Assembly: GCA_006226565.1 (NCBI GenBank)
Contig: SBGO01000356.1
Span: 748 to 64,747 of the forward strand
Reading direction: 5' to 3'
DNA: 64,000 nt
Origin: Deltaproteobacteria bacterium
Lineage (GTDB): Bacteria > Myxococcota_A > UBA9042 > PHBI01
The notes below the pieces were generated by a model, which saw nothing but the letters and a program-made list of their open reading frames with translations, did no database searches and was not told the origin of the DNA. Positions 17,414 to 40,419 of this stretch are shown here, piece after piece. Numbering within the stretch: position 1 is the first letter of the stretch; the number at the start of each line of letters is the position of its first letter. The translations under genes and the position numbers were made by a program.

Positions 17414-17440
17414 GCCTTCTCGCCTCCGTCGTGGAGTTCG

Positions 17441-19494: not shown

Positions 19495-20035
19495 CTTCGG
19501 ACCTAGCCCCCCTCGGCCTTTGGTGCTCAATCTGATCCTCGTTGTACTCTGGTTCTGTCGGGTTCCGTCCGTGAAGGCGGTACCCTCGCGGACGTTGGCA
19601 TCTTGGTGCTGACGCGCTCGGCGCTCGCAGCTGCGAGGCGACCACGAGACGCGCTCGCGTGTCAACGACCCGGAGTCTCCGAAATGTTACCAACAAGCGG
19701 ATGGCTGGTCGCTTTCGACCTCCAATCTGGTCGGATCGGGACCAGGCCAGCGGGAGCGAGTGTTGGGGCTGCATCCAGCGGGACCCGACGTTCTCGGACC
19801 AAGGGGGTCACGGTGCTGGCTGCAGCGACCTAGAGCCAAGCATCGCGATCGCGGAGCGAAGACGTTGAACCGTGGCGGGGGTGTCGGAGCGTCAGTACGT
19901 CGGAGACTCGGATTATGGGAACGACATCGAAGCCGTGCGGGAATGAGTTCCGCGAGCGTGCCGTGCTACGCTGATTGAAGACTCGGCTCCGCAAGCTCCA
20001 TGCCGACACAGCTGCCAGTAGCTGTCCTGGCTCGG

Positions 20036-20806
20036 TCATGACATTGCCGACACGGCCTTCAGCGTGACGGCGAGCTCGTACTCGAGCAACATGACATCGG
20101 CGACCTGAGACACCGCGTAGCGGATCCGGTCCGTGATGTGACCGGCGACGATGACTCCCCGGACCGGCTTGCCAACGGCCAGATGGTGGACGACCCAGCC
20201 CTTGTAGCGAAGCACCTGGCCGACGACCGCGTCCGGCCCCTTGCTGACCTTCAGCTCGATCACAACCAGCCCCTCGTTCGCGTCCTGGGCCAGGATGTCG
20301 ATGCGACCAACGGGCGTGGTGTACTCGACTCCGGCGTTCCCGTCTTCGTCGGCGTATAGGGACAGCCCCGGCTCGATGAGCTCCAAGTGGTCCGCTAGGT
20401 AGTCTCGGAGGTGGGCCTCAGCCGCAAAGATGCCCGACTCCGAAGGCACCGGCTCGGGCGCGTCAATGCGCCGGACCAGGTTGCGGCCATCTTCTTGCTC
20501 GACGATCTCCCAATCGCCGTGCTTCGCGGAATCGAAGAGCTCGAGTTCGCCCCGGGTCGGCCGGAACAGGAAGTCGTACTGGAGGTTCGCCTTCCGGGGC
20601 TTCTTGTTCTCCGGGTAGTGGACCCGCGAAGCGTGGTTCACCGTGCAAACGATGATCTGACAGGAGATGGTGTTCCGGTTGGTATCCGGCCAGCGCTCGA
20701 GGATCCAGTTTCGTACGGCGACGTTTGTCGTGGACGGTCCCAACTCGTCCACGGCGCGGCGGATCATCTGCCAGACGTAGGGGCGGTCTTCCGCGTTGGC
20801 GGTCAT
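20036..20806 (-). CDS. PD-(D/E)xK nuclease, NucS/DUF91-like C-terminal fold (GRIDILAQD...VVIELKVSKG)
   Basis: Nuclease motif in translation; AGGAGAG RBS. Confidence 0.65.
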   Translation of the reverse strand: MTANAEDRPYVWQMIRRAVDELGPSTTNVAVRNWILERWPDTNRNTISCQIIVCTVNHASRVHYPENKKPRKANLQYDFLFRPTRGELELFDSAKHGDWEIVEQEDGRNLVRRIDAPEPVPSESGIFAAEAHLRDYLADHLELIEPGLSLYADEDGNAGVEYTTPVGRIDILAQDANEGLVVIELKVSKGPDAVVGQVLRYKGWVVHHLAVGKPVRGVIVAGHITDRIRYAVSQVADVMLLEYELAVTLKAVSAMS

Positions 20807-20871
20807 AGGGAACTCTCCTGGGAACTCGTCGCCTCACCGGGATAGGCATCTCATCCTTCGCAAGGAGATGG

Positions 20872-21321
20872 TCAGTCGTCCTTCCATGCGAGGCGCTTCG
20901 GCTCCTCCTCGCCCCTCATCACGCGAACGAGGAAGTCGTAGTCGTCCTCCGTGACCTCGATGATGCCGCCCTTGCAGTAGATGTAGTTCGACGGTGTCGT
21001 CTTCATTTCGCTCGGGAAGCACGACAGCGACCACAGAGTGTCGGCCACCGGGCGGGCGAAGCCGGACTCGGTGAAGGCCACATTGCAGCGGTGCTCATAG
21101 ACCTTGCCGCCCGAGAAGATGGGCGTGTCGTCCACGAAGGTCTCGCCAGCAACCGTGCCGATGCCGTCGAGCTGCTGCACCCGCGAGAGGTACGCGAGGA
21201 ACGGGTCGCCGACGGAGAGCTCCTTCAAGAGCTTTCGGGCGCCTGTGCGGACGCCGATGGTGCGGTGCGCCTTCACGTCCCCGTACGTCTCGGGGCGGAA
21301 CATCATCAGCCAGTATTTCAT
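20872..21321 (-). CDS. EVE (PUA-like) domain protein
   Basis: Start MKYWLMMFRPETY with GGAGGG RBS; EVE-typical N-terminal motif; ~149 aa. Confidence 0.65.
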   Translation of the reverse strand: MKYWLMMFRPETYGDVKAHRTIGVRTGARKLLKELSVGDPFLAYLSRVQQLDGIGTVAGETFVDDTPIFSGGKVYEHRCNVAFTESGFARPVADTLWSLSCFPSEMKTTPSNYIYCKGGIIEVTEDDYDFLVRVMRGEEEPKRLAWKDD

Positions 21322-21443
21322 GTCGTCCCTCCGTCGAATTGGCGCCTCAGCAACGCCATGCACAGTGAGTCAGCCTAGACGGCGTTGTGCTTCGCCTCTG
21401 GAGCTGCAGGATGCCGGGTCCCGAGTCTCTCGCCGTACGCACA

Positions 21444-22187
21444 TCAGAGACCGCCTCGTTCAAGTTCTACGAAGTCGGTGTCCAGGCCCTGTCGATGCAC
21501 TCGGAACTGCGACATGCCGCGGATGTGGCTTGAGTTCACGTCGACCTCAAAGGGGAACATGGCAGGATGCCCGGTCAGCTGGTCAATGGGGACCGACGCA
21601 TCCTCGGCGTCCACGAGAAGCGCCTCGAGGAGCAGGGTGCCGACTGCTGGCCCGACCTTCCTTCGCCATGGCGCAGCCTCATACATCCCGCGAATGGCCG
21701 TGTCCCGGAGGACGCCCCACTGGACCATCGAGCGGACGATCCGCTGCCCGGCACGTACAAGTGTCGAGCGGCCACCCCACGCGCCAACGAGGCGCCGCGT
21801 CAGGTGCGCGAGTGTGAAGCTTCCTTGGAGGGTCAGGAGACGCCCGATCGCTGCGGCGGCGTCCGTGAACACCGGGTAGGTACCGACCATCATCGCCCAA
21901 TGGATGGCGATGCGCGCGTCCGGCTCGCTCCCCGCGAGCTGAGCTATCGCCCTCACACGGAGCGGCGCTGCCGGTTCGGGGACTTCACCCCAGATGTGAT
22001 TCAAGACGGTGACCGTCTTGCCTCGAGCACTGTTGGACTTGTCTCCGCTCACGACGCCGTCGAGCAGATTCCAGAGGTAGGCGCGCATGTCGTCGTTCGG
22101 TGCGCCCGCAGCGGCTTGAGCTGCGGCAGCATCAAGCCAATCGAGATCGATTCGTCGATCGAAGCCGATGTTCGCCCGTCGGTTCAT
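21444..22187 (-). CDS. Hypothetical protein, positional equivalent of BrxA in type-3 BREX (247 aa)
   Basis: ATGA overlap with pglZ stop; assignment by position/size only. Confidence 0.5.
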   Translation of the reverse strand: MNRRANIGFDRRIDLDWLDAAAAQAAAGAPNDDMRAYLWNLLDGVVSGDKSNSARGKTVTVLNHIWGEVPEPAAPLRVRAIAQLAGSEPDARIAIHWAMMVGTYPVFTDAAAAIGRLLTLQGSFTLAHLTRRLVGAWGGRSTLVRAGQRIVRSMVQWGVLRDTAIRGMYEAAPWRRKVGPAVGTLLLEALLVDAEDASVPIDQLTGHPAMFPFEVDVNSSHIRGMSQFRVHRQGLDTDFVELERGGL

Positions 22188-24214
22188 CGGGACTCCGTGA
22201 TGCGCACAAACGGGACCATGACCTCTTCTAGCGCGATGCCGCCGTGGCTCACAGATTCCTTGCCCTCCGGCATGAAGCAGGCACCGTACGGCGCGATCAG
22301 CGGGAAGTAGTCATGAGGAAGGCCGATCTGCGGCCACTCGACAGCGTCGGGGTACATGGGCGCGGTGTTGTCGCGGAAGTGCTTGTCGCGGAAGATGTGC
22401 GCGCGCTCACCGCGCTGCTGCGCTGTGGCTCCGACATCGGGCTTCCCGAAGCCTCGTCCGAAAACGTTGCCGTGGTCCGCCGTGATGAACACAGCAAACC
22501 CGCGTTGAATCAGTCCATCCACAAGGCCGGCGAGCTGCCCGGTTCGAGCCCACACTTCCACGAGACCGTGCAGCCCAGGCGTCCCAAGCCCGACTTGGTG
22601 CATGTTCTGGTCGATGAGGCCAATCACCGCGCCGATGACGCGGACAGCGTAGTCGTCGGCAGCGCGCAAGATGTCCGCCTCGATGGGCTCGAACGACTCC
22701 TTCTTCCCCTGAGGCTTCAGATACTGGATGGCCCGCTCCGGTAGACCTCGGTCCTGCCAGAAGTTGAACCAGTGCTGAAGCTCTCGGTGCGTGCCCTCGA
22801 TACTGGTTGCGAACTCCATGGGAACGCGTCCAGAGAAGATAGCTTGACGACCGATCTGCGTCAGAGTCGGGATCCAACTGAAGATCGCGTGCTCGTCGAC
22901 GTGGTGGCGTTCGAGAGTAGGCCGCAGGATGCGCCACTGGTCGATCGCCATTCCGTCGATGACGAGGAGCGCCACACGCTCTGTGCCGGCCTGTCCGAGG
23001 TGGTGCGCGAGGTAGTGCGGCACCTGATGTCCGAGCACCGGATGCGGTAGGTAGGGAAGCGTGGACATCGGCCCGAAGCGCCGCAGGAGCCATGTGGAGA
23101 ACGCCGCCTGCACACGGTCGACAAACGCGACCGCGTCTGCTTCGCTCTGGGGATCTCGGTCCGGGAAGGTCTGCCATCGCAGGCGCACCCAGGTGCCCCA
23201 TCGAAGGCTATAGTCCTGCCAATCCTGGTGCGTCGCGCAGTCGGCGTCAGGGAGCGTCGAGTCGAGCTCGCCGAGCAGGTGGATGAACCGGCCGTCGGCG
23301 CTCGACGCGGGTGACCCCGCAATGCCGACACCAAACCAGCGGTCGTCGTCGATCGGGCGTACGGCGGCCGTTGGTTCGAGCAGCCCCTCGACGAAGAGGT
23401 TGTCCATGTAGACGCGAACGTCGTCGTGGTCGAACGGCAGATTCATGGGCCCCGAGATGCTCGGGCCCGCCGGCTCGCGTCCAACCTCCACCTCCAAACC
23501 CTGGCCTTGGAGGAAGCGCGGCCACCGCTCACCCAAGAACGCCAGGAACGCCTCGCGATCCGGCACGATCCGTTCGAGTGGCCACGACCGCCACTTCTCG
23601 TCTCGAGTGAGAATCTCGATGAAGCGCGCGTCGAGGCCATCTGGAAGGGTCTGCGATCGATAGTGGCGACGAAGCAGAACACGAAGAAGGTCAGCCGGTT
23701 GCTTGATCAGCTCGGGAGCAATCTCGAAGACATGGCGCAGTATGAAGTCTCGGGTGCTATTGGTTCCGAGGTTGTCAGGGTCGGCCTTGTCTAGCGCGCG
23801 GGCGAGCGCATCGAAATGCTGCGGGTCCAGCTCCGCTACAGCGTTGGGTGCCAGCGCCGGGAAGATGTGAACGAGGCTGAACGACAATACGCGTCCGTTC
23901 TCCTGAGCCTCTTCGAGCAGGTCGTGCGGGATATGCTTCGGATCACCATGGTCAGTGCGAATCACCACGACAAGGTGCGTGGCTTCACCTCGGTCCCAGT
24001 GCTGCCGGAAGCGGCTCTCGTAGGCGTAGCGGAAGGCGATCGGGTCCCCGAAGGTGATGAGCTCGAACCCGCGGGCAGCCAAGCGCTCGACAACGCCGGG
24101 CTCAGTGAGTAGCTCATCGGGGTCGCTCACCACAGTGAGCCTGCCAGCCTTGGCGCTGGCCTCGCTGAAGTGCTGCAGGATTGGACCGCGCCAGCCGTCG
24201 CGTCGCTGCGTCAC
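22184..24214 (-). CDS. pglZ: PglZ-domain protein (alkaline-phosphatase superfamily; ITADHGN motif)
   Basis: PglZ motifs; GTGA overlap with upstream helicase gene. Confidence 0.85.
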   Translation of the reverse strand: MTQRRDGWRGPILQHFSEASAKAGRLTVVSDPDELLTEPGVVERLAARGFELITFGDPIAFRYAYESRFRQHWDRGEATHLVVVIRTDHGDPKHIPHDLLEEAQENGRVLSFSLVHIFPALAPNAVAELDPQHFDALARALDKADPDNLGTNSTRDFILRHVFEIAPELIKQPADLLRVLLRRHYRSQTLPDGLDARFIEILTRDEKWRSWPLERIVPDREAFLAFLGERWPRFLQGQGLEVEVGREPAGPSISGPMNLPFDHDDVRVYMDNLFVEGLLEPTAAVRPIDDDRWFGVGIAGSPASSADGRFIHLLGELDSTLPDADCATHQDWQDYSLRWGTWVRLRWQTFPDRDPQSEADAVAFVDRVQAAFSTWLLRRFGPMSTLPYLPHPVLGHQVPHYLAHHLGQAGTERVALLVIDGMAIDQWRILRPTLERHHVDEHAIFSWIPTLTQIGRQAIFSGRVPMEFATSIEGTHRELQHWFNFWQDRGLPERAIQYLKPQGKKESFEPIEADILRAADDYAVRVIGAVIGLIDQNMHQVGLGTPGLHGLVEVWARTGQLAGLVDGLIQRGFAVFITADHGNVFGRGFGKPDVGATAQQRGERAHIFRDKHFRDNTAPMYPDAVEWPQIGLPHDYFPLIAPYGACFMPEGKESVSHGGIALEEVMVPFVRITESR

Positions 24215-27042
24215 GCCGCACCTCCGGTTCGTGCGACCGCGACGAGGAGCATGGGGCTCAGCTCGGGAAGGCCGTGTTCACGGGCCTCGCGGTCGCGCCG
24301 CCAGGCGGCCTCTTCGTCTGCGAGTTGTGCCAGCCGGTGATTGCGGACCTGCGGCAGCCCGAGTCGCTCGATCGCGCGCCGCCGAGCGGAGAAGGCGACG
24401 TTCATCTTCCGCGATTCTTTCGCCAGGCGCTCGCGGTGCCGCTGCAGAAGCTCGTGGAATGCAGCCTTCCCGTGCTGCTCCGCAGCAGTTCGGGACTGCT
24501 CGAACGCCTGCTCCGCTGCTCCGTCCGTCGTCGCAGCCGTTGGCAGCACCTCGATCCCTTCGACTAGCTCGACCAAGCGGTCCCACACCACGCGCGCCGT
24601 GGGGCCGAGCGTCTGTCCTTCCGGCGTGACGAAGATCGGTAGAACGCGCTGCTCCCGGCCGTCGAAAGTCGAGAGAGACACGCGCCACAAGGACCAGAAG
24701 CCGGCGACCTTGTCCGATACACCAGGGATCACGAGCTGCGCGACTCGCATTCCGGGCGCATACGGCGGAACCCGCGTGGTGAGGCCACGAACGCGCGGAT
24801 CCTCGATGGTGAGGAGCGTCTTGCTGGGATCAGCGGATGCCGAACGACTGAACGACGCTCCGGCAGTCCTCCCCCCGTCGGGCCACGAGATGTCGTAGAC
24901 TCCTGGCGAGTCGCTTCTGATGGAGGCTCCACGGGCGGCCTGCGAGCGCAACCACGCGAGGGTCATCCGTTCGGTCCAGAACGGCATCCGGTGCCCAGCG
25001 ACCTTCTTGGCTGCCGATGGGTCCAGCTCCTCGGTGGCGGCCAGCACCGACGAGCCTTCGCGAGCCGATCGTGCTCGCGCTCGAATGGACTCGGCCAGCG
25101 CTTCCGCTCGCGCCTCGGCTTCCTCGGGCGAAAGCACTGCACCGAAATAGAGCTGCTCGAAGTCGACACCACCCTCCTCGGAGTCCAGCACGTCGGAGAG
25201 CTTGTCTACCCCGAACTCCTCGAGGATGCGCTGGAGCTTCTCCTCGAGAACCTCACGCACCCGCAGCTCGACCGTGTCCTCAAGGGCGAAGTTGAGCGCC
25301 CGTACGATGTGCTTCTGCCCGATGCGGTCGACGCGCCCGATTCGCTGCTCCAGCTTCATCGGATTCCACGGTAGGTCGTAGTTCACGATGACGTGGCAGA
25401 ACTGTAGGTTGAGGCCCTCGCCGCCGGCGTCGGTCGAGATGAGCACCTGCGCGTCTCCGGCGAAGGCGTGCTGCACCGACTTGCGAGCCTCGAGGTCCAT
25501 CGAGCCGTTGAGGCAAGCCACTGTGTAGCCACGTTGCTCCAGAAACTCGGCGAGCATCGCCTGCGTCGGAACGAACTCCGTGAAAACGAGCACCTTGAGC
25601 GACGGGTCGTTTTCTTCGCGTTGCAGCTTCTGTATCCACGCGAGAAGCGTCTCGGCCTTGCCGTCTGGAGCCCGCGCCTCGCATCGCCGGGCGGCTGAGA
25701 GGAGGAGCTCGACCTCGGCGCGTTCACTCTTCAACCCCTTCAGCCTGCTCTGAAGGAGCGATTCCATCTGCTCTTGCCCGTCGAGCTCGACCCAGTCGTC
25801 GCCCACCTCCTCGCCGAAGAGCGAGAGCTGCCCGGATGGAAGCTCGAGCACCTCGAGCCGCCGCTCGAGCGCCGTTCGAATCGCGGCCGTGCTCGATGTC
25901 ACCAACCGCTGCATCAGGATCATCAAGAACCCGATCGCGTTACGTTTCTCGCGCACCGCCTGGTTGTAGCCTTCGCGCACATACTCTGTGACGGCATCGT
26001 ACAGCGCCCGCTGCTCATGGCGCGATGCGTCCCACTCCACCGAGACGATCTGGGTGAAGCGGGGCAGGAAGAGGGGCTTGCCGTCAGCGTCGATGGCGCG
26101 CCGCTTCTCGGTCCGGATGACATACGGCGCTACGTTCTCGCGGGTGACTGACTCGTCGTCGGGAAGCGCATCTGCGTCGAGGAACGCCACCAGCCGACGG
26201 AATGCGTCGGTCTTGCCTTGGTGCGGAGTCGCTGAGAGCAGGAGCAAGTACGGCGCTGCCTGGGCGAGCGCGTCACCGAGCCGATAGCGGGCGACCTGCT
26301 CCGTGCTGCCCCCAAGCCGATGGGCCTCGTCGATGATCACCAGGTCCCAGCCGGCGGACACAACGTCTTCGAAGCGCTCGCGGTTGTAACGAGCTGTCTG
26401 CTCTCGCGACCAACCGCGGCGGGCATCCATCGGTTTGATCGAATCGAGCGGACAGACGACCTGATCGTGCAGTCGCCAGAGGTTCTCCTTCTCGTCGACA
26501 CCAGACAGCTGCCGCCAAGCCTGGAAGTTGCCAGGCTGCACGAGCCGGAAATCCTCGCTGAAGTGGGTCTCCATCTCGCTGACCCACTGGCTCGTGAGTC
26601 CCGCAGGCGCCACGACGAGGATACGGCGTGCCAAGCCTCGAACCTTGAGCTCCCGCAGGATGAGACCCGCCTCGATCGTCTTGCCGAGGCCGACCTCGTC
26701 GGCGAGCAGGTACCGGACGCGATCTCCCGACATCGCCCGCTGGAGCGCGTAGAGCTGGTGCGGAAGTGGGATGACCGAACCTTCGAGCGGCGCCACCAGT
26801 GCGTCATGCTCGAGTGCGTCGAGGATACGCGCAGCCGCGGCAACGTAGCTGAGCTGATTCAGCGATGGCGGATCCGCATCCGCGAGCGGCTTGATGCGAC
26901 TTCGGTGCAAGCGCACGACGGAATCGCGTCGGGCGAGCCACACGTGCGCCGTCTCCGTACCCCACACGGAGTCCACCGTGATGACGCGGCACGGCTCGTC
27001 GTGGTCGATGCTGAAGCACCAGTCGCCCCCAGCCACGCCCAT
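24211..27042 (-). CDS. brxHII: SNF2-family helicase (BrxHII-like)
   Basis: SNF2_N motifs GLGKTIEA, VIIDEAHRLGG, LLLSATPHQGK; helicase-C DLPWNPMKLEQRIGRVDRIGQ. Confidence 0.85.
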   Translation of the reverse strand: MGVAGGDWCFSIDHDEPCRVITVDSVWGTETAHVWLARRDSVVRLHRSRIKPLADADPPSLNQLSYVAAAARILDALEHDALVAPLEGSVIPLPHQLYALQRAMSGDRVRYLLADEVGLGKTIEAGLILRELKVRGLARRILVVAPAGLTSQWVSEMETHFSEDFRLVQPGNFQAWRQLSGVDEKENLWRLHDQVVCPLDSIKPMDARRGWSREQTARYNRERFEDVVSAGWDLVIIDEAHRLGGSTEQVARYRLGDALAQAAPYLLLLSATPHQGKTDAFRRLVAFLDADALPDDESVTRENVAPYVIRTEKRRAIDADGKPLFLPRFTQIVSVEWDASRHEQRALYDAVTEYVREGYNQAVREKRNAIGFLMILMQRLVTSSTAAIRTALERRLEVLELPSGQLSLFGEEVGDDWVELDGQEQMESLLQSRLKGLKSERAEVELLLSAARRCEARAPDGKAETLLAWIQKLQREENDPSLKVLVFTEFVPTQAMLAEFLEQRGYTVACLNGSMDLEARKSVQHAFAGDAQVLISTDAGGEGLNLQFCHVIVNYDLPWNPMKLEQRIGRVDRIGQKHIVRALNFALEDTVELRVREVLEEKLQRILEEFGVDKLSDVLDSEEGGVDFEQLYFGAVLSPEEAEARAEALAESIRARARSAREGSSVLAATEELDPSAAKKVAGHRMPFWTERMTLAWLRSQAARGASIRSDSPGVYDISWPDGGRTAGASFSRSASADPSKTLLTIEDPRVRGLTTRVPPYAPGMRVAQLVIPGVSDKVAGFWSLWRVSLSTFDGREQRVLPIFVTPEGQTLGPTARVVWDRLVELVEGIEVLPTAATTDGAAEQAFEQSRTAAEQHGKAAFHELLQRHRERLAKESRKMNVAFSARRRAIERLGLPQVRNHRLAQLADEEAAWRRDREAREHGLPELSPMLLVAVARTGGAA

Positions 27043-27050
27043 CGTTCACC

Positions 27051-29828
27051 TCACTCGTCCCCGAGGCGCGTTAGTGCAACATCATAGTAGAGCAACAGTT
27101 GCTCATCCTCGTCCAATAGGCGTTGCGGCAATCGACTGGAGATCGTCTTGATGAGCTTGTAGTCACCTCGTTTCATTGCCGCCGAGAACCCGAGGCGAAT
27201 CGCCTCGCTCCTCACCTCTTTGAGCCGCTTGCTCCCCTGCCGATAGGCATCGAATTCACGCAATAACTGCCGGTTCCGAACCTTCTCGATATCCGCTTGA
27301 TTCTCCGGGTTTGGCACGTACCACCGATTCGTCGCGACGCCCTGCAGCCGAGAATCACTCGTCAACACTGCCCCGGTTGCGTCCACTTCACACTGCTCGA
27401 CCAGAGGACGGAGCGCGGAAGACTGGCGCAAATAGCCGGCGATCTGCGCCGCGATCTTCTCGGTGCTGTCGTGGCAGAGGAAGTTCTCTCTCAATAGCTC
27501 AGACAACTCCAGCGGCCGTTCGTACTTTTGCCACTGGCGAATCTCCCGTATGAAGTCGGGCGAAATCTCCTGATACGTCTGCGGTTTGCGCTGCAGCCGA
27601 TCTCGCAGCCATCGGATGGCACTGGCTTCATCGACTATGAATAGTGATTCTTGTCCGCCATACGAGACCTTCATTCTCGCGCGATCGTACTCAAGAACCT
27701 GAGCGGAAAGGAAGTACATCGAGCCGCGACTGGGGTACCGCTGCGCGAGCCGCTGGAGGAATTCGGCACTTGAGAGGTCGACCGGCACGCCAGCACTTAG
27801 TGATGCCGCTACCCAGCGATCGAATAGAATCGGTGCGGTTCGCTCTTGCACGTCGACCAACTCCCCCCCAATCATTTGGACGACAGGCAGTCGTGCCAGA
27901 TGCTCGTTGATGAAGTCCCACACCGCTTCCGGTCGTTGCGCCGCGCTTCGCACCAGCCCGGCGGTCGCCAGAGAGGGCTTGTAGCACGAGATGACCAGGT
28001 CCTGCTTGACCGCGGTGGCCGTTGTTACGGCGCGGTAGCCCTTGTGCTCCTTCTCCAACGCGGCGACGCTGGCGACGATGAATCCTGCACGTTGAATGGC
28101 AACCTGAATCGCGTTCCATACTTTCGCCTTTGTGTTTGAGAACTCAACCGTCATCCAGGCACCGGGCTTGAGTACTCGGAAACACTCCCGAAAGGACTGC
28201 TCCATCAGGTGTTGATAGGACATGAGCGTCTTGCTGCGAGCTCGGTTCTCGACAGCTTCGAGTTCGTGTGCCGTGCTGCATTGCAGCCACGATTCCCAGA
28301 GGACATTCAGCTCGGAATACTGAATGTTCGCCCCGAAAGGCGGATCTGTGAAGATGTAGTCGACTGAGTTAGCGGGGACCGGCACATCCGTCGCCGAGCC
28401 CGTTGTCACAAAGGAGCTGTGGCTGGGCGCCGTGTGCGGCACAGAGGAGATGCGAAGTCGGAATCGTTCTATGAGATTTGTCTCGATGCTCAGCGAACTC
28501 ACATAGAGCGTTCCCTGGAGGGTCTGCCCGATAACGCCGCCGCGTCTCTGGAAGTAATTCGAGGTCAGGAGTCGGTTCAGCCTCGTGCCCCAAGCGTGCG
28601 TGGAGGTGAACCACATGCCCAGCGCGGGAACTACATCAAGTTGCGCCCAAATGAGCTCCCTCAGTTTGGACAGCACGTGGAGATTTCGCCGGGTGTAGAA
28701 GTGATGGACGTGGGTCAAACCCATGGGGTCGTTTCGCCGTGTTTCCCCTCCCTCTGGCATTCGAGCCACTGGATACCACGAGCGAAGTCGCAGGCTCTCG
28801 ACTCGCCGCAGCGTATCAAGATCCCGTGCGTCAGGCATCTTCTCCAGTCGGCCTGGAATGCCATCCACGACGTAGTTGATGAGAACAGGGACTTGCTTTG
28901 CCTGCCGAACTGTCTCGCCGATCCCATCGTCTACGACAGTCTCGAAGACTCGTTCCAGATGTGCCTTGGTTACCGAGACTCCGCACTTGCTGCACGCGAA
29001 CTCGTCCTTCACGCCACCCGCTTCTGCATCCACCGCCACATCCCAAAAGACGATCTCGTGTGCGCATTCCGGGCACGAGAAGACATCGCTCCACAGCACG
29101 TACTGCACCGTTCCATCGCGTCCATCTGTGTGCTTGGTCTGGTACATCCATGAGAATTCTGCCTCCGCCTGGTTCAGAATCCGAGTCGCGCACTCTTCGA
29201 ACTGTAGCCTGTCAGTTGGTGTGGTGAACTTGTGTGCTATGAACGTGGCCGCAGGAGCAAGGTCCCCGAGAATTGCTTTGCGTTCACCCCACTCGATGGG
29301 ACCAAGGCCACTCTCCCGAAACTCGCTCTCAACTTGGAGCTTGAAGTCCGCATCGACCCCTCCGCAGGCCGATGCGGCTACTCCGGTCATGCCGGTTCCT
29401 GCGAACGGATCGAAAACCACGTCGCCAGGAGATGAGTAGTGGAGAAGGAACCTCATGATCGCCTTGTGAGGTACCTTGGTGTGGTAGGAATGAGCGTTGT
29501 AGATTGGGTCGTTCTTGCCCTCTTTCACGTCGGCAACTAGGGGGGCGACGTGTTTAGGGGCAGCCTTGGTGTAGATCGTCGCCGAGGGAAGGAATGGGTT
29601 GGGGCACGCGGTGAAGTACGGCGGATCCGATAGCTGGAGAATTGCTACATCAGTTGCGACTGGGAACCCGGGGGTCTTACGGAACTCCGGGTCCTGGAGC
29701 TTCTCTCGGAGCTGGTTGAGGAAGTGCGCTCGACGCGCGTCATCGTTCTCAAAGGTCATCCCGAGGCACTCGACGGGGCCGTCGTACGCTTGAGGTTTCG
29801 CAAAGCCAAGATCCTGCTGATTACTCAT
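27051..29828 (-). CDS. pglXI: N6-adenine DNA methyltransferase, PglXI-like (beta-class order: DPPY then DPFAGTGMTG; second DPPF motif downstream)
   Basis: MTase motifs IV and I read in translation; 925 aa; lower GC3. Confidence 0.8.
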   Translation of the reverse strand: MSNQQDLGFAKPQAYDGPVECLGMTFENDDARRAHFLNQLREKLQDPEFRKTPGFPVATDVAILQLSDPPYFTACPNPFLPSATIYTKAAPKHVAPLVADVKEGKNDPIYNAHSYHTKVPHKAIMRFLLHYSSPGDVVFDPFAGTGMTGVAASACGGVDADFKLQVESEFRESGLGPIEWGERKAILGDLAPAATFIAHKFTTPTDRLQFEECATRILNQAEAEFSWMYQTKHTDGRDGTVQYVLWSDVFSCPECAHEIVFWDVAVDAEAGGVKDEFACSKCGVSVTKAHLERVFETVVDDGIGETVRQAKQVPVLINYVVDGIPGRLEKMPDARDLDTLRRVESLRLRSWYPVARMPEGGETRRNDPMGLTHVHHFYTRRNLHVLSKLRELIWAQLDVVPALGMWFTSTHAWGTRLNRLLTSNYFQRRGGVIGQTLQGTLYVSSLSIETNLIERFRLRISSVPHTAPSHSSFVTTGSATDVPVPANSVDYIFTDPPFGANIQYSELNVLWESWLQCSTAHELEAVENRARSKTLMSYQHLMEQSFRECFRVLKPGAWMTVEFSNTKAKVWNAIQVAIQRAGFIVASVAALEKEHKGYRAVTTATAVKQDLVISCYKPSLATAGLVRSAAQRPEAVWDFINEHLARLPVVQMIGGELVDVQERTAPILFDRWVAASLSAGVPVDLSSAEFLQRLAQRYPSRGSMYFLSAQVLEYDRARMKVSYGGQESLFIVDEASAIRWLRDRLQRKPQTYQEISPDFIREIRQWQKYERPLELSELLRENFLCHDSTEKIAAQIAGYLRQSSALRPLVEQCEVDATGAVLTSDSRLQGVATNRWYVPNPENQADIEKVRNRQLLREFDAYRQGSKRLKEVRSEAIRLGFSAAMKRGDYKLIKTISSRLPQRLLDEDEQLLLYYDVALTRLGDE

Positions 29829-30138
29829 CCCAGATTCGCTCCTAGGTGCTGCACGAGGCGGCGGTCCTTTCAGCCTACTCGACGCGATAGCGGGCGAGCA
29901 CTTCGACCGTCTTGAGGGACGCCGTCACGTGCTCTGATATCGTCCGCCCGACAGGCGAACCGTGCGGTGACGTGCGTAGCCATTCTTGTCAGCGTTGTCG
30001 TAGTACATGAGAAGCTTCTCGTCTTCTTGGGTGCACATTGTCGGGGAGCTTCTCGGCGCCCTTGACGAACGTACCGTCGTCACGTTCCTGCCAGCATGCC
30101 TTTGAAGCCCGCCCGCGCCAGTAGTTCCGGCTGACTAC

Positions 30139-32067
30139 TCATCCCGACTTCTCCCGTAGGTGCGGCGCGAGGCGGTAGTTCGACTCATCGTGATCGATCA
30201 GGACTTGAAGCAGAAGGTAGTCGATCGCCCTGACTAGAGTCTCGAGGTCGAGACCCGTCTGTGACTCAAGGGCCGAGAGGGTAGCATTAGGGGTATTGGC
30301 GACCGCATTCAGCACAGCGGCCTGCTGCTGGGTCAGATGCACTCCTACCCGCGACTTCCATGCACTATCGACGTCGAGTGCGCCTTCCGACCAGTCTAGT
30401 GTTAGTGTGAAGGTGTTCGCGTCCTTGTCGCTCTCAAATACTGGTGACCGTCGCTTGGCCTGCTGGCAGGCGCGGTGGACGGCCCGGATTCCAGAACCCG
30501 ATATCTCGGCAAAGCCGAGCAAACGCAGCGCGCGTGCGATCAGCGGGTTGCGCGATTGGGTCTTGCCTCCGTCGAGCAGCCTATCGGTGGCTACAAGCGA
30601 GTAGCCCATGTTCGAGACGACCATCTTCGTCGCGTGAATCTCGATGTGACCGGCAGCCCTCGTGTCCTGATAGTCTTGGTGCACGGTCTGGTTCACGAAG
30701 ATCTCGCGAAGCGTGAGGTAGTCGAGCGAACCTTCGGTCTTGCGAAGGTCCTCAGGCACCACCTCGCGCATTCCGGTCTGCTCCGCGAAGAATCTCACGG
30801 CACGCTTGAGCGCCTCGAGGATGTTCGCGGATTCGACGATATCTCGCCTCGACGGCCGCATCGTATCGGGGTCAATGACGCGCAGGTCGAGCACGTCCCG
30901 CTGAAGCTCGGATCGAACCGTCGACGGGCGGCCGAAGAGTAGCCTGAGCTGGCGCCGCTCGTCGGGCTCGACGTGACGCCGTCCGTCAAGAAGACGATTG
31001 CCTATCGTCGCATGGGCGTCGGTTGTCCCCGGCTCGAGGAGTCCAGCGAACCACTTGACAGTCGTTGGCTCGAAGGCTTGCCAGTCTACGAGTCCGTCAT
31101 GGCGGCGCCCGCTCTCTTCGATGTGCTCTCGGATGGTCGCCCATTCGCTGGCGAGGTGTCGGCCGTCGATGAGGATGACTGTGTCGGGTACCCGCCGAGC
31201 CCCCGCGAGGAGTTGCCGCGTCGACTCCGCTATGCCGTCGCTCCGGCGCTGCTCACTTCCGTCGAGCGTGCAATAGCGGACCCTCGGTCCGTCAACTGCA
31301 TCAAGGAAGAGCAGCGCGAAGTTCTGCCTGTCTTGATCAATCCCCCAGATCAGCCAGGGGGGAAGCTGAAGGCAACTCTTGTTGACCGCGATGTACGGCG
31401 TGCCGGTCTCCCCGACTCCGCCCGTCTGGTGTTCGACCTTGATGGATTCGGGTGCTGGGTCCGACGACTCACCCATTAGGAGCAGACGACGGACCACGAG
31501 AGCCTCGCGAGTCCACTGCTGGTCTTCGACCACGAAGAGCGGCTTCGAAAGGACTGCTTCGACGCCATCGAGCGCTTCAACGAGGAGCGTCGCAGGGGCC
31601 CTTGTGGCCTCGATCGCGGCGGCCTTGGCCTCATCGAGGTTCCGAAGCTCGTGCCCCAGATCGTTGCGAAGTTCGAGCAGCGAGACCAGCGCGCTATCCG
31701 TCTTGCCTCGCAACGTCTCCTTGTTCCGTTTCGTCACCTTGAAGCCCTGGGCGAGCAAGGGCGCGACGGGATGGTCCCCCTTGGCGCCTGCCACTTCTTG
31801 CACAATCGTCAGGAAGTGGCCGAAGGAGAGGTTGCCGCTTACCTCACTGAGCTTGGCCTCCGTCTCGTCGGCTCGCGACGCAAAGGAAGCCATAGCCACG
31901 GCCGCCAGGTATCGGGTGAGGACCTCGGCGGCCTTGAGACAAGCGTTGACGCGTTCGGCGGCTGTCCGCGCACGCAGGACTCGGCCGCACGCGATCGCTA
32001 CTGGCGTCGGGTAGATGAGGCTGCCACGGCGCAGCGGCCACTGTTCGGCTCCGGACTCTGTCATCAT
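30139..32067 (-). CDS. HATPase_c_4/RecG-C-terminal-like protein (NPLIARALRLLGFAEISGSGIRAV) with C-terminal wHTH and N-terminal region carrying HEPN-like RNDLGHE motif
   Basis: Start MMTESGAEQW overlapping brxC stop (TGATG); domain motifs in translation. Confidence 0.65.
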   Translation of the reverse strand: MMTESGAEQWPLRRGSLIYPTPVAIACGRVLRARTAAERVNACLKAAEVLTRYLAAVAMASFASRADETEAKLSEVSGNLSFGHFLTIVQEVAGAKGDHPVAPLLAQGFKVTKRNKETLRGKTDSALVSLLELRNDLGHELRNLDEAKAAAIEATRAPATLLVEALDGVEAVLSKPLFVVEDQQWTREALVVRRLLLMGESSDPAPESIKVEHQTGGVGETGTPYIAVNKSCLQLPPWLIWGIDQDRQNFALLFLDAVDGPRVRYCTLDGSEQRRSDGIAESTRQLLAGARRVPDTVILIDGRHLASEWATIREHIEESGRRHDGLVDWQAFEPTTVKWFAGLLEPGTTDAHATIGNRLLDGRRHVEPDERRQLRLLFGRPSTVRSELQRDVLDLRVIDPDTMRPSRRDIVESANILEALKRAVRFFAEQTGMREVVPEDLRKTEGSLDYLTLREIFVNQTVHQDYQDTRAAGHIEIHATKMVVSNMGYSLVATDRLLDGGKTQSRNPLIARALRLLGFAEISGSGIRAVHRACQQAKRRSPVFESDKDANTFTLTLDWSEGALDVDSAWKSRVGVHLTQQQAAVLNAVANTPNATLSALESQTGLDLETLVRAIDYLLLQVLIDHDESNYRLAPHLREKSG

Positions 32068-35000
32068 CAGCGCTCCACGACGACGCGCACGCGGTTGGCG
32101 TCCTTGCCCTTGGTCAGGTCGGCGACGAAGGCAGCGAAGCGCTCTCTTAGTTCGTCGACCGTACAAGGGACGCCACCGTCCGTGAGCGCGGAGCGGAGCC
32201 GCGCTTCGGTCAACACGACCTTCTCGAGCCCGCTCAGGATCTCCTGAATGGCCTTCACGAAGGCAGGGCTCACCGGGTCGGGCAGGCTGTTGCTCTTGAG
32301 GAAAGCCTCGACGGCGTCACGACCTTCACCGGCGCCGACGAGATTGATGTTGCCGGACACCGTCGGGTCCTGGAGGTTTGCGAGCAGCGTATTCGTCCAA
32401 TTCTGCACCAGGTCGTCGAGCTCGGCGTCGAGCTGACCGATCCGGTCCCCCGCCTTCGTTCCCCCACGCATCGGATCGGCAGGCTCCTCGACGGGGCGGA
32501 ACGTGCAGTGCGGACAGATGGGATCGGCGTCGAGGTCTTGCTTCGTGAGGGCGAAACACGTCTTCAAGCCGAAGAGCGCGTTCTGGAGGTCGCGCAGCTG
32601 CTGGGTTGGCATCATCTCAACGGTCGAGAGTAGCTGGAGTTGCTTGAGACGAGGATCCTGCCCGAGACGTGCTTTGCGCTGGTCGTCGGTCGCTCCTAGG
32701 CGCGCCTGCGCGTGGCTCTTGAGGTAGGCGTCCTGGTAGGCCGTCTTGAGCTCAGCCAGCGCCTGCCCGAGGGCACGCTGGAAACTCGAATCGGCGCGGT
32801 GCTTCGGGCTCGTGATCTTGGCCATCAGCTCGCCGCGTCGCTCCCGCATCTGGTCCACCCAGGGGTGGCCAGCCTCGAGCACGGCCTCTGCCTTACCCAG
32901 GTAGGATGTCGTTGGCCCGACTTGCTGTACGAGCTCTCCCAGCTCCTCGACCTCGCGCACCTGCGCGAGCCCATGCCGCTGTGCTTGGATGGCGGCAACG
33001 TCGTGCGGGAAGCTCTTCAGCTTTCCGGCCGTGTTGAACGCCTGGAGCGACTCCAGGAAGCGCTTCAGATCGCCGAGGCGCTGCCGCCACTCGGTCTGCT
33101 CCTGCTCCGAGAGGATGGGCTTGCCCCACAGCACCATGTCGGCGACGTGGGCGTGGGCGAGCACCGTCTTGTTGACCAGCTCGGCGACCTTGCCCTGGAG
33201 CTGGGTCACCGCGTCGTCGCGCTTGGCCGGGTTGACGATCAGCCCCTTGGGCACGCCGAGCAGGTCGAAGAGCTCCTGCAGCGCACCGAGCGGTAGGTCG
33301 CGCGGGCGCTCGATGTGCTTGAACTGCGCGACGTCGTTCACCGAGAGCTTCGCGAACTGGTCGATGGCCCCAGCGTCGATCTTCTTCCCAGTGATGCTCA
33401 TGACCACGTCGCCGCTGTGGACGAGCCCGGCCAGGACCACGGCGAGGAACTCCGGCTCGAGCCGGAAGCGGCTCCAGTAGTCGACCCCGGCCTGCTCCTG
33501 AACCAGCTCGGAGCGGTTGAGCACCTGGCCTTCGCCCTTGGCGCCGAGCTGCTCGATGATGTGCTTCGCGTAGCGAGACTCGCGCGGTCGAAGCTGGTCG
33601 CCGTCGAGCATCTCGAGCGCGTCGAGAACAGCGGCGCCGAGCTTGCTCTTCACGCTCCCGGCGATCCACCGCAGGGCATCCTGCGCCGCCTGCCCGCGGT
33701 TCGCTCGGGTGATGGGCGTGTCGAAGATCGGATAGCCGGGCGCGGTGTCGGTGAAGTGGGTGGACAACGACACCGCCGCCGCGACGTCGACGTAGTCCCG
33801 AACGCCGCCGCGCGATGGGGCGCGAGCGAAGAGTGTCTGGAGCGCCTCGCCCAGGCTTCGGGCCTTGCCCTGGTACGTGACCTCGTAGACGGTGGTCAGC
33901 TTCTCCTGCAGCCAGCGGGTCATGGTCCGCAGGTGCTCGAGCGCCTTGTCGTCGTAGACCTTCTTGTTGCTGCCTGACGCGGTGGCCGACAGCTCGCGCG
34001 CCCCGGCGTAGAGCTTGAGCGCGCGGTCGAACTCCTCGTCCCGGTGCGTCAGCCGGAAGAAGACCTCGTCGGGCTTGCGCTCGTCCTTGAAGTACGGCGC
34101 TTCGAACGGCTGGATGAAGTAGATGTAGAAGTCGCGGGGCGGCTGGGCGGTGGAGCGCTCGTTGGGGGCGCCGAAGAAGAGATAGCCACTGCGGCCCGCC
34201 TTGCGCTCGCGCCACTCCAGCTCGTGCTCCCAGATGCGGTAGCCGGAGACGTAGGGCGGCGCCTCTGGGTCTTCGAGCACGACGCGGCGCAGACCGTCGA
34301 AGTAGTAGCGATCGAGTTGGGAGTCGCTCAGCGACTCCGCGCGCTTCTCGATGAGCGAGTCGAAGTCGATGTCCTTCTTGAGGTCGAGGTAGTACTGGCC
34401 GTTCTCGCGATTGTAGGAAAGGAACTGCCCGCTGACCGTCTTCACGATCTCGCGGAGCACGGTCTCGACGACGGTCTTGAGGAACTCTGCGTCGCGTTCC
34501 GGTAGCGGCAGGAGCACGCATAGGTCGTCGCGGAGCTCCTCGGCGGTCGCGCCAATGGGGGCGAAGATGTCGCTGGTCGTCAGCCGGTGTACCGAGAGCG
34601 CATGGATGATGCGTAGCGCGGCTGGGCGGTACTGCGGCCGCGTGAACGCCTGCTGGATGCGCGCTTCGACGACATCGGCTTTCTCGATGACATCGCGGAT
34701 CTCCGGGACCGAGCGGAACGACGGGTTGTCCTTCAGGCTCAGCCAGTACGAGTCGTAGGCGATGAGGCCAGGCTCGTTGGCGGGTACGGCCTCCGTGAGC
34801 ATCCGGCGGATGGCCGCGCTCAACGTCTTGAGCACCTCGCGCTTCTCTGCGACGTACACCCGCTCGAAGGTGTCGAGGTAGGCCGGGTGCACCGGGAAGA
34901 GGCGGACGAATTCGTCCATCCGCTCGTTCATCGACCCGTAGAGCGGCGCGAACTGGGTCAGATGCTCGCGCACCAGCGCCTGCTGTCTCGCGTCCTTCTT

Positions 35001-35777
35001 GAGAAGCCGCTCGGCGACGACGTGAGCCACATCCTCGCGAGCGATGCGCATCTGCTCGAAGCGGTCCCTGACGCGTCGGAGGCTGTCCGCAGCGAACTGG
35101 AAGCGCGGGTTGTCGAAGAGGCTCTCCTGGACGCCTGCGATGAAGCGGAAGCGCGAGCCTTTGGCGAACTCTCCGACCGCTCGCAGGAAGTTCAGGTTGC
35201 GCATCAGCTCCTGCTCTCGGTTGGAGCGGAGGTAGTCGAGCAGCTCGTCGAGGACGAAGAGGAGCCCCTTGTCGGGGAACTTCGCCGTGAACGCCGCCAT
35301 CATGGAAGCGAACACGTCCTTGTGGTTCCTGACCTGGTCCTCGGGTGGAACGTCGAAGCGCACGCCATGTTCCGACAGGTGGTCCTGGAGCGTCTCCATG
35401 ACGAACTGGCGAAGCGGCATCGCCGAGTTGATTTCCGCGCGGATGACGAAGAAGCGCCCGGCGACGAGCGATGCCTTGTCCGCCACCTTGGGGTTTGTGA
35501 GCGCGTTCGCGAGGTCGGCGTGCTCCGCGATGGCGGAGATGACCGCCATGAGGTGCGACTTGCCGGTGCCGTAGTTGCCGACGACGAGAAGGCCCTTGTT
35601 GTCGGCCGGGGTCTCGAACTGAAGTTGCGGGAGCACGAGGTCTGCGAGCTGCTCGCCCATCCGGTCGGAGATGACGAAGGTCTCGACGAGACGACGAGCG
35701 CTTGCCGCGCGGTCGGCTTCGCGGAGCTGAACGACGGTCTCGATGGGGTCGAACTGAATGAGGTCCGCGTACTTCAT
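32067..35777 (-). CDS. brxC: BREX BrxC/PglY large P-loop ATPase
   Basis: N-terminal BrxC-like region with GNYGTGKSHLMAVISAI Walker A; 1236 aa; ATGA overlap with brxF. Confidence 0.85.
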   Translation of the reverse strand: MKYADLIQFDPIETVVQLREADRAASARRLVETFVISDRMGEQLADLVLPQLQFETPADNKGLLVVGNYGTGKSHLMAVISAIAEHADLANALTNPKVADKASLVAGRFFVIRAEINSAMPLRQFVMETLQDHLSEHGVRFDVPPEDQVRNHKDVFASMMAAFTAKFPDKGLLFVLDELLDYLRSNREQELMRNLNFLRAVGEFAKGSRFRFIAGVQESLFDNPRFQFAADSLRRVRDRFEQMRIAREDVAHVVAERLLKKDARQQALVREHLTQFAPLYGSMNERMDEFVRLFPVHPAYLDTFERVYVAEKREVLKTLSAAIRRMLTEAVPANEPGLIAYDSYWLSLKDNPSFRSVPEIRDVIEKADVVEARIQQAFTRPQYRPAALRIIHALSVHRLTTSDIFAPIGATAEELRDDLCVLLPLPERDAEFLKTVVETVLREIVKTVSGQFLSYNRENGQYYLDLKKDIDFDSLIEKRAESLSDSQLDRYYFDGLRRVVLEDPEAPPYVSGYRIWEHELEWRERKAGRSGYLFFGAPNERSTAQPPRDFYIYFIQPFEAPYFKDERKPDEVFFRLTHRDEEFDRALKLYAGARELSATASGSNKKVYDDKALEHLRTMTRWLQEKLTTVYEVTYQGKARSLGEALQTLFARAPSRGGVRDYVDVAAAVSLSTHFTDTAPGYPIFDTPITRANRGQAAQDALRWIAGSVKSKLGAAVLDALEMLDGDQLRPRESRYAKHIIEQLGAKGEGQVLNRSELVQEQAGVDYWSRFRLEPEFLAVVLAGLVHSGDVVMSITGKKIDAGAIDQFAKLSVNDVAQFKHIERPRDLPLGALQELFDLLGVPKGLIVNPAKRDDAVTQLQGKVAELVNKTVLAHAHVADMVLWGKPILSEQEQTEWRQRLGDLKRFLESLQAFNTAGKLKSFPHDVAAIQAQRHGLAQVREVEELGELVQQVGPTTSYLGKAEAVLEAGHPWVDQMRERRGELMAKITSPKHRADSSFQRALGQALAELKTAYQDAYLKSHAQARLGATDDQRKARLGQDPRLKQLQLLSTVEMMPTQQLRDLQNALFGLKTCFALTKQDLDADPICPHCTFRPVEEPADPMRGGTKAGDRIGQLDAELDDLVQNWTNTLLANLQDPTVSGNINLVGAGEGRDAVEAFLKSNSLPDPVSPAFVKAIQEILSGLEKVVLTEARLRSALTDGGVPCTVDELRERFAAFVADLTKGKDANRVRVVVER

Positions 35778-36286
35778 GCCGAGTGCTCCTGGGTCGCCGT
35801 CGTCCCGCTGTTGCCGGGGGGGCCGCTGGAAACGACGAGCGCCTGAGGTTGGTCGTAGCGTCGGAATTCGGGATGGTCGGGAGCCGCGTACGTCAGCAAC
35901 GAGCCCATGTATGCACCGCGCCACGCTGTCACGATGGTGCGGTTGCGCGAGAGGCTCTGAAGGAGGCGTAGCGGATCCTGCTTCAGGTCGGGGTGAAAGA
36001 GCATCTCGATGTTGTCGAGGAGGACGGTGTCGCCGGCCTGTTCCTGGACGATGTCATCGACGAGCCTCGCGACCCGAAGCGCACGCTGCTTCACTGTGAG
36101 CTCGAGCAACCGCTCCGAGAGCGCGAGGTTGATATTCACGAGCGGCCAGCTGTTCGCGCTGTGCAAGTCGCGGAACGCGCTGGTCTTTCCAGAGCGTGGT
36201 GGACCGGCGACGATGACGAGCCGATGGTAGAGCTGACTCGCCTTCTCGACTTGCTCAGCGACTAGGTGTGAAAGCGGCGGCGCCAT
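35774..36286 (-). CDS. brxF: Small P-loop ATPase, BrxF-like
   Basis: Start MAPPLSHLV with AGGAGG RBS; Walker A AGPPRSGKTS. Confidence 0.65.
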   Translation of the reverse strand: MAPPLSHLVAEQVEKASQLYHRLVIVAGPPRSGKTSAFRDLHSANSWPLVNINLALSERLLELTVKQRALRVARLVDDIVQEQAGDTVLLDNIEMLFHPDLKQDPLRLLQSLSRNRTIVTAWRGAYMGSLLTYAAPDHPEFRRYDQPQALVVSSGPPGNSGTTATQEHSA

Positions 36287-36561: not shown

Positions 36562-37757
36562 CTATTCGGCCGCCGATACGATGAAGGACACGGTTGACGG
36601 TGGTCGCGCGGGTGCCGTGGCGCGGTCGTTCACAAGCTCGGGGGCGGGGCCGACTGCGCGCGGGTGAGCGGCCGCCCAAGGATCGGGAAGCGGCACGTCG
36701 AGCATGGAATCGGGCCAGCGTCGAGTACAGTCGAGCTGCTGGGCAGTGGCGTCCTTCTCGACCCGATAGAGCTTGCCGATGAGCTGGATGGGCCAGGCAG
36801 CGCGCGGCTCGGTGTCCTTGAGCTGGAAGAACTTCCTTCGGGCGTGCGCCCAGCACCCGACCTCTGACGCCGAGGCGACCTTGCCGTTGAAGAGCTGGTC
36901 GAAGGTGTTGCTGGCGTCGGCCTGGACGTAGCCGGTCCGGCCGGCGAAGAAGCCCCATGGCCCGTCCTCGCCGGTCCCGGTCTTCGCGTACTCGAAGACG
37001 GTCCAGCGGCGGTCGCCGACGTAGCACCACATCGTGCCGCGACGAATGCCCTCGGGATGGTCGCGGTCGAGGACCTTCAAGCCGCTCGCGTCAGTCTGGA
37101 CGAGGTGTGCCGCATGGACGCGCTCGGTGATGCGGCGGACGAGCGGCTCGACGAGGTCGGCGACCGCGGCGACCTGGTCGCTGAGCGTGGACACTGGGAT
37201 GTTGACGCCACGGCGCGCGTAGATGCCTTGCAGGCGGTGCAGCGGCAGGTGGTCCATGTACTTTGAGCACAGGAGTCCGGGCTCGGCGAAGCCGCCTGGG
37301 ACGACCTTGTCGGGGCCGGCCGCGGTCGTGACCCCGTCCTTGCAGTGCGGGCAGGCGTACTTGGCGACGATGTGCCGCTTGACGATGAACTGAGCGGGCA
37401 CGAGGTCGAGCGTCTCGCTGACGTCTCGTCGCCGATGTGCTGGAGCGCGCCGTGACAGGCCGTGCATGTGCGCCCGCCGGCGTCGACGTCGTAGCGATGC
37501 TCGTCGCGCGACAGGTGCTCGGGGAGCTTGCGCCGCTTGGGCTTCCACTTCGGCGGGCCCTCGTCGGTCGGCACGACGCTGCCGGTGTCGTCCTCGTCGA
37601 CCGGCACGTCTTCGTCGATAGGCTCGCTGCTCTCGTCGCCGCCGGCCTGAGCCAACATCAGCGAGAGCTGGGCGCTGTCGACCTTCTCGCTACGTCGACC
37701 GGCGTTCGCGCGCCGCTCGATGAGGAAGCGCAGCTCCAGCTCCGTCTCGCGGCCCAT
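36562..37757 (-). pseudogene. IS66-family transposase (TnpC) remnant, frameshifted near 37440-37550 and 3'-truncated
   Basis: N-terminal zinc-finger part in ORF 37077..37757; DDE part (LPLHRLQ, MWCYVG, GCWAHARRKF) in ORF 36562..37548 in another frame. Confidence 0.7.
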
Positions 37758-40418: not shown

Positions 40419-40419
40419 A

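Follow-up and report, generated by a model that had tools for sequence, protein, structure and literature searches.

We have analysed a 64,000-nucleotide (nt) stretch of contig SBGO01000356.1 from a Deltaproteobacteria bacterium (hereafter, the window), in which nine consecutive open reading frames (ORFs) occupy positions 20036-36286 of the minus strand. Seven of them make up a bacteriophage exclusion (BREX) locus of type 3. Type 3 BREX, reportedly a class in Goldfarb et al. 2015, is to our knowledge the least studied of the major BREX types and is still defined by six genes. All six were recovered here in the published order, brxF-brxC-(accessory)-pglXI-brxHII-pglZ-brxA, with one additional gene, termed here the accessory gene, between brxC and pglXI. 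The gene order and the identities proposed in an initial annotation, made from the letters of the window, were thereby confirmed. Taken as a whole, we consider it probable that a complete type 3 BREX operon is present here, that it carries a recurrent accessory back-up RNase and that its pglXI allele has been replaced.

The proteins of the window were scored against the Pfam, PADLOC and NCBIfam profiles. The operon begins with brxF (35774-36286, on the minus strand like every gene of the locus), whose ATG at 36286 is preceded by AGGAGG and whose product is a small P-loop protein of 170 amino acids (aa), scoring 179 bits with NCBIfam BREX_3_BrxF (cut-off 50) and 184 bits with PADLOC BrxF (E 3e-55). 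The brxC/pglY gene (32067-35777) encodes a 1236-aa ATPase with the Walker A motif GNYGTGKSH(L). Its match to Pfam DUF6079 (1564 bits) spans model positions 1-1238 of 1238, and PADLOC BrxC gave 1760 bits. The accessory gene (30139-32067, 642 aa), in which Pfam recognised HATPase_c_4 (E 1e-11), is followed by pglXI (27051-29828), coding for a 925-aa N6-adenine DNA methyltransferase in which a target-recognition insert is nested (PADLOC PglXI 1150 bits, full length). Then come brxHII (24211-27042), specifying a 943-aa SNF2/RapA-like helicase (PADLOC BrxHI/BrxHII 1365 bits, full length; Pfam SNF2-rel_dom and Helicase_C), and pglZ (22184-24214), whose 676-aa product has the alkaline-phosphatase fold and the motif ITADHGN (NCBIfam BREX_PglZ_3 630 bits, cut-off 250; PADLOC PglZ 701 bits; Pfam PglZ 67 bits). 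The 3' end of the operon is formed by a 247-aa gene (21444-22187) that corresponds to the type 3 variant of brxA (PADLOC BrxA 197 bits, E 6e-59). Full-length PADLOC matches were thus obtained for all six core genes, and the PglZ and BrxC families, on which the initial annotation depended, were found far above the curated cut-offs. The brxA assignment held with PADLOC but not with Pfam: no Pfam family matched this protein in the Pfam scan, hence the expected DUF1819 was not recovered, and the assignment rests on the PADLOC model and the gene position.

The methyltransferase also retained its catalytic motifs on alignment. Motif I (FDPFAGTG, residue 139) and motif IV (DPPF, residue 495) are separated by an insert of ~340 aa and are conserved across 15 aligned PglXI sequences, with Pfam N6_N4_Mtase matched in two separate stretches. 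The protein had been described as a PglXI-like, beta-class N6-methyltransferase; its placement in N6_N4_Mtase and PglXI stood, whereas the motif order (I, insert, IV) is permuted relative to the beta class. This order agrees with the nested target-recognition domain of type 3 methyltransferases described in PMC12839542, where the type 3 BREX classification was re-analysed. The window operon thus shares with the type the six defining genes in order, scores above the type-3 PglZ and BrxF models, a RapA-like SNF2 BrxHII and a PglXI with nested insert. It differs in the seventh gene between brxC and pglXI and in a divergent pglXI allele (42-46% identical), preceded by a 310-nt scar, in an otherwise near-identical operon. 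The core ORFs are uninterrupted, and the Walker A, DEAH, ITADHGN and methyltransferase I and IV motifs are all present. Judged by its predicted products, this type 3 BREX operon is complete and intact, and apparently functional.

The gene junctions were inspected individually. ATGA overlaps join brxF to brxC and pglZ to brxA, a TGATG overlap joins brxC to the accessory gene and a GTGA overlap joins brxHII to pglZ. Between pglXI and brxHII there is an 8-nt gap containing GAGGTGA, and between the accessory gene and pglXI a gap of 310 nt. With four of the six BREX junctions overlapping and one of 8 nt, the core is tightly coupled except at the accessory gene/pglXI junction; the earlier statement that almost every junction is an overlap was therefore somewhat overstated. 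The accessory gene itself is predicted to be translationally coupled to brxC.

To place these features in context, we used a BrxC-alignment scan with one genome per species, which added 80 type 3 loci whose BrxC shares 50-94% identity with that of the window, and the window proteins were mapped onto these loci. The 310-nt gap (29829-30138, minus strand), the only long intergenic gap in the operon, was identified by blastn as a putative non-coding recombination scar. It begins after the accessory gene stop with a pglXI-like start (ATGAGTAGTCAGCC), and its nt 20-147 (128 nt) match the final 150 nt of the L001, L006 and L027 pglXI genes at 84% identity (blastn), in frameshifted form. This fragment translates piecewise as ARAGFK..WQERDDGTFVKGAEKLPDNV..QEDEKLLMYYDN, the PglXI C-terminus of L006 being VRVGFKACWQERDYGTIVKVAEKLPDAVLQEDEKLLMYYDNALTRLGDE, and blastn found no similarity between it and the 3' end of the window's own pglXI. 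Further along, scar nt 192-256 and 279-310 match the accessory-homologue 5' region (72-82% identity) and 3' end, respectively. The gap contains no ORF longer than 52 aa; a small ORF with an ATGA overlap with the accessory gene was considered as a gene and discarded, as it has 20 codons and corresponds to the start of the pglXI pseudogene.

In L001, L003, L009, L027 and L086 there is no such gap, and the accessory gene stop overlaps the pglXI start by 4 nt. The window PglXI is 42-46% identical to the PglXI of the closest loci, with just the first 50 and last 25 residues well conserved, while the BrxC, BrxHII and PglZ of these loci are 87-94%, 83-90% and 79-87% identical, respectively. That PglXI diverges while the rest of the operon matches closely suggests that the methyltransferase allele has been replaced. 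Among the core proteins of this clade, PglXI varies most (47-88%), and the window allele was found in a single sampled locus, the metagenomic L086 (85% identity), which has the clean arrangement and whose other proteins are 74-90% identical. In L054, two complete pglXI genes stand in tandem (14005-19338). The simplest reading is that the pglXI allele was replaced by recombination, perhaps via a tandem intermediate.

Pseudogene fragments between the accessory gene and pglXI could also be the mark of a decaying, non-functional BREX remnant. An IS66-family transposase remnant spread over two frames (36562-37757, minus strand; zf-IS66/DDE_Tnp_IS66 and LZ_Tnp_IS66) lies directly upstream of brxF, and no sigma-70-like promoter was detected above chance, both of which would fit such decay. 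We regard this as very improbable, as none of the seven ORFs is truncated and each matches its family profile from one end to the other, the catalytic motifs are intact and the overlapping junctions have been kept. As to the promoter, the promoter and terminator consensus scan was at chance level, and such consensus is uninformative for this organism. In the window, no small HTH_17 gene was found upstream of brxF, where at least 25 of 76 related loci possess one. Loss of this regulator through the IS66 insertion was considered and rejected as significant, given that the gene occurs in about one-third of the loci and that the closest relatives are also without it.

The accessory protein has a predicted N-terminal HEPN-fold domain (residues 1-173), followed by a small beta-barrel (177-275), a helical linker (279-390), a HATPase_c_4 domain (~393-560) and a MarR-like winged helix-turn-helix (wHTH, 566-641). 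HEPN superfamily RNases act independently of metal ions and carry an R-x4-6-H motif, often with N, H or D after the R. The N-terminal motif ELRNDLGH (R134-N135-x3-H139) of the accessory protein conforms to this pattern, with all three residues invariant in an alignment of 32 homologues. The N-terminal structure model is helical, HEPN-like and unlike the Schlafen fold; no sequence profile backs the HEPN fold. The N-terminal 440 aa returned nothing relevant from Pfam (E 10), NCBIfam or PADLOC, a 16-sequence N-terminal profile had no match among all PDB sequences, and neither SLFN_AlbA_2 nor DUF4145 matched the accessory protein even at E 10. Likewise, four SLFN N-termini used as phmmer queries gave no match to HEPN-type accessory genes. 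Based on the fold model together with the R-N-x3-H motif, a HEPN RNase head is the best reading of the N-terminus.

A profile of residues 1-300 was then searched against 1.84 billion cluster representatives. The N-terminal module family turned out to be small, with 186 relatives, and of the 99 representatives covering the motif site, 98, 98 and 96 retain the R, N and H residues, respectively, across architectures. Some relatives join the module to HTH arrays or to HTH_40 in place of HATPase_c_4. Four proteins of ~1000 aa (P0388, P0391, P0395 and P0420) have the HEPN and beta-barrel module fused to long HTH-domain arrays, and the module also occurs alone in ~450-aa proteins. Three of its loci (L091-L093) are non-BREX and defence-like, with nSTAND, DUF6361, PAPS reductase, DEAD helicase and AAA_15 neighbours.

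We have detected 214 homologues of the accessory gene, most of which match it over the full length and have 636-645 aa. Those of Archangium violaceum, Rhodopseudomonas palustris and Thiococcus pfennigii each stand between the brxC and the pglXI of a type 3 BREX locus, with a 4-nt overlap with the latter gene. The occupancy of this slot was counted in 74 non-redundant loci showing both brxC and pglXI. In 23 of the 74 loci the slot is empty, brxC adjoining pglXI; 16 hold a full-length HEPN-type accessory homologue, 21 a protein with SLFN_AlbA_2 and HATPase_c_4 (plus a MarR/Fic-like_C winged helix; Pfam) and 14 other cargo, which includes a YhcG/DUF1016 PD-(D/E)xK nuclease, DUF1828, Fic, a 1200-aa SF1 helicase and an S8 peptidase. 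Hence, ~70% of the sampled loci hold cargo between brxC and pglXI, a frequency to be read as indicative. The accessory gene, initially taken for a singular insertion, is a recurrent slot occupant and not a one-off insertion.

Several loci illustrate how the content of the slot varies. Schlafen-type and HEPN-type HATPase_c_4 genes stand in tandem in L004 (7992-11597) and L031 (13709-16872), whereas just the first 66 codons of the accessory gene are left in L012 (13701-13886) and the gene is broken in L013. One HEPN-type family member, in L049, is located between pglXI and brxHII. From these arrangements, the brxC-pglXI junction appears to be a recombination-active cargo slot, and the predicted HEPN and Schlafen heads prove interchangeable on a HATPase_c_4/wHTH body in the same slot. 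In eight loci with slot cargo (L035, L039, L041, L059, L065, L079, L083 and L084), pglZ follows directly after pglXI and no brxHII match was obtained, which agrees with the 77% prevalence reported for BrxHII in type 3 BREX (PMC12839542).

The wHTH would also be compatible with a role like that of BrxR, in which the ATP-binding accessory protein controls transcription of the BREX operon and its HEPN-like domain is non-catalytic. We hold this to be quite unlikely. The near-complete retention of R-N-x3-H across architectures is hard to explain if the domain is non-catalytic, the gene lies inside the operon, neither upstream of it nor divergent, and the proteins that fill the slot in its place are nucleases. 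The separate HTH_17 gene found upstream of brxF in related loci is a better regulator candidate.

Accessory effectors embedded in BREX loci are already documented. Auxiliary HEPN, Schlafen and PD-(D/E)xK effectors have been catalogued, with HEPN appearing only as stand-alone, MNT-fused or fused to DUF499 ATPases (PMC12839542). Proteins combining Schlafen, a minimal histidine kinase and wHTH were tied to BREX loci in 1017 taxa (PMC12839542), and this is the commonest bacterial Schlafen architecture (bioRxiv 10.1101/2025.07.24.666596). The window protein has in common with these BREX-linked proteins the half in which HATPase_c_4 is followed by a winged helix. Their head is AlbA_2, whereas that of the window protein is a predicted HEPN-fold RNxxxH domain plus beta-barrel, with no detectable Schlafen/AlbA_2. 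With HEPN effectors such as Csm6, LsoA/RnlA, HEPN-MNT toxins and the HEPN-DUF499 ATPase fusions of BREX-related systems, it shares the R-x4-H motif with N after R, and by its structure model it would have their helical fold as well. Such effectors are likewise tied to restriction-modification-like systems as back-up effectors, but the window version is fused to a beta-barrel, HATPase_c_4 and wHTH.

A functional parallel is BxaP, whose gene is inserted in type 3 BREX and which, as a DUF4145 protein, is HEPN-like; it confers abortive-infection-like protection on E. coli even without BREX (PMC10799925). BxaP is rare (0.29% of BREX-bearing metagenome-assembled genomes, MAGs), is located between pglXI and brxHII and has a HEAT-like C-terminus (PMC10799925). 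Like the accessory gene, that of BxaP is not among the canonical genes of the type 3 BREX locus in which it lies; its product has an N-terminal domain of the HEPN-related DUF4145 kind, where a HEPN fold is predicted for the accessory protein. The two proteins share no detectable sequence similarity, and the window gene lies between brxC and pglXI. The accession numbers of the accessory family were absent from the text supplements of PMC12839542. In the accessible literature, we did not find described either the fusion of HEPN, beta-barrel, HATPase_c_4 and wHTH or the alternation of HEPN-type with Schlafen-type proteins at brxC-pglXI. By analogy with these systems, the accessory protein is most likely a second-line (back-up) RNase effector.

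The example of BxaP, sited elsewhere in type 3 BREX and protective in its absence (PMC10799925), raises the question of whether the accessory gene acts in abortive infection on its own, using the slot as a mere safe harbour or expression site with no functional tie to BREX. The unrelated cargo that fills the slot elsewhere, from the YhcG nuclease to the S8 peptidase, would suit this explanation, as would the non-BREX neighbourhoods of the HEPN and barrel module and the close relatives L012 and L013, in which the accessory gene is deleted or broken while the rest of BREX is kept. On the other hand, in most loci the start and the stop of the accessory gene overlap the genes on either side by 1 nt and 4 nt. 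The ~640-aa form was inside type 3 BREX in five of five homologue-derived loci and in every locus of the BrxC sample that carries it. In addition, Schlafen and HEPN heads are found on one HATPase_c_4 and wHTH chassis in one slot, and this suggests a role for the chassis at that place. We therefore see full autonomy as a possible, though somewhat unlikely, explanation.

Directly downstream of brxA, the remaining two ORFs encode a 149-aa EVE-domain protein (20872-21321, minus strand; Pfam EVE 28.5 bits) and a 256-aa PD-(D/E)xK nuclease with DUF7669 and NucS_C (20036-20806, minus strand; Pfam, and PADLOC PDC-S02 74 bits), a candidate single-gene defence protein. The initial annotation had them continuing the operon, which the comparison did not bear out. 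The gaps between brxA and EVE and between EVE and the nuclease are 122 and 65 nt, respectively, and neither gene was found downstream of brxA in any of the 80 related type 3 loci. The sole case of an EVE or NucS-like neighbour among them is L060, with an EVE gene upstream of brxF, and the nuclease homologues are solitary genes in unrelated neighbourhoods. The possibility that the two act together in modification-dependent restriction, as a pair attached to BREX, was thus rejected as a conserved association. Both genes are treated, on these comparisons, as putative separate island cargo and not as conserved BREX parts.

The G+C content of the window is 0.72-0.75, except for the region from 6 to 42 kb, where it is 0.58-0.68. 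A tRNA-Arg(CCG) gene is located at 5090-5166 (ARAGORN), and its 3' part (attL, 5120-5167, plus strand) forms a 48-bp direct repeat with 40371-40419 (attR, plus strand), based on an exact 29-bp match, of which none is expected by chance, that extends to 48 bp. Beside the tRNA gene there is a tyrosine integrase gene (5096-6688, minus strand; Pfam). The repeats enclose a mobile island of ~35.3 kb, lower in G+C, with the BREX locus as cargo; tRNA-Arg is its insertion site, and the MAG itself is high in G+C and myxobacterium-like. The island also holds a DUF927 helicase and a DnaG-like primase, and the related BREX loci of Archangium, Rhodopseudomonas and Thiococcus likewise lie beside integrases or primases.

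Nearly all the island cargo looks defence-related. Just downstream of BREX, a coupled four-gene operon (14607-19665, minus strand) is joined by ATGA and GTGA overlaps and encodes a 328-aa protein without family match, a pair of BrxD-like ATPases, paralogues of each other (NCBIfam BrxD 84 and 41 bits; cut-off 350) and a Lhr/Ski2-like DEXH helicase (PADLOC SngC 199 bits, BrxHI 192 bits). We regard it as a candidate defence system resembling BrxD/BrxHI or Shango. Also in the island, at 10620-14507 (plus strand), there is an unusual pair of genes: a 413-aa ORF without family match and, after it, an SF2 helicase of 881 aa that is fused to Amidoligase_2. Outside the island, a single ORF of 3229 aa, with a third-position G+C of 0.95, spans 52339-62028 (plus strand).

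A working scheme for the operon can be proposed from family membership and analogy. Host DNA would be marked by PglXI through methylation of adenine at N6, and BrxC, BrxF, PglZ, BrxHII and BrxA would block replication of unmarked phage DNA, as expected for members of the BREX families. The accessory protein would act as a second-line, abortive-infection-type RNase, by analogy with BxaP and the auxiliary BREX effectors: its ATP-binding/wHTH half might sense a nucleic-acid or BREX-related signal, and the HEPN RNase activity might be released if exclusion, the first line, has failed or been inhibited. The comparisons described above established the motif conservation and the genomic linkage of the accessory protein, along with its domain architecture, in which the HEPN fold is a prediction; we infer its RNase activity, trigger and BREX dependence by analogy.

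Some observations weigh against the reading of the locus as a BREX operon with a dedicated back-up RNase. The 80 loci were picked by similarity to this BrxC clade, and L001, L003 and L004 were found via the accessory gene itself; this bias of the sample makes the slot frequencies indicative only. Tight coupling is lost in the window between the accessory gene and pglXI, where the 310-nt scar lies, and the scar together with the IS66 remnant just upstream of brxF means that expression in this genome is not guaranteed. Finally, BxaP acts independently of BREX and the accessory N-terminal module is also found outside BREX; the trigger of the accessory protein and its coupling to BREX are conjecture.

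A more far-reaching idea is that HATPase_c_4 and wHTH form a docking or sensing chassis specific to BrxC-PglXI, with interchangeable RNase heads (Schlafen or HEPN), serving as a guard that fires on inhibition of the methylation/recognition complex or on its engagement by phage DNA. We put this forward as speculation and consider it unlikely. If true, type 3 BREX in most lineages would be natively a two-layer system, combining exclusion with abortive infection, and not a six-gene one.

For the family as a whole, the pglXI data suggest that the specificity-determining methyltransferase may be exchanged as a cassette, with a 45%-identical PglXI residing in a ~90%-identical operon, which matters for predicting methylation motifs from the BREX type alone. 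As for the slot, brxC stands beside pglXI in about one-third of the sampled loci, and half of the loci hold one of two related proteins with different predicted RNase heads. The shared ATP-binding/winged-helix half with different heads would offer a natural domain-swap experiment on the coupling between BREX and a back-up effector, if the two are coupled.

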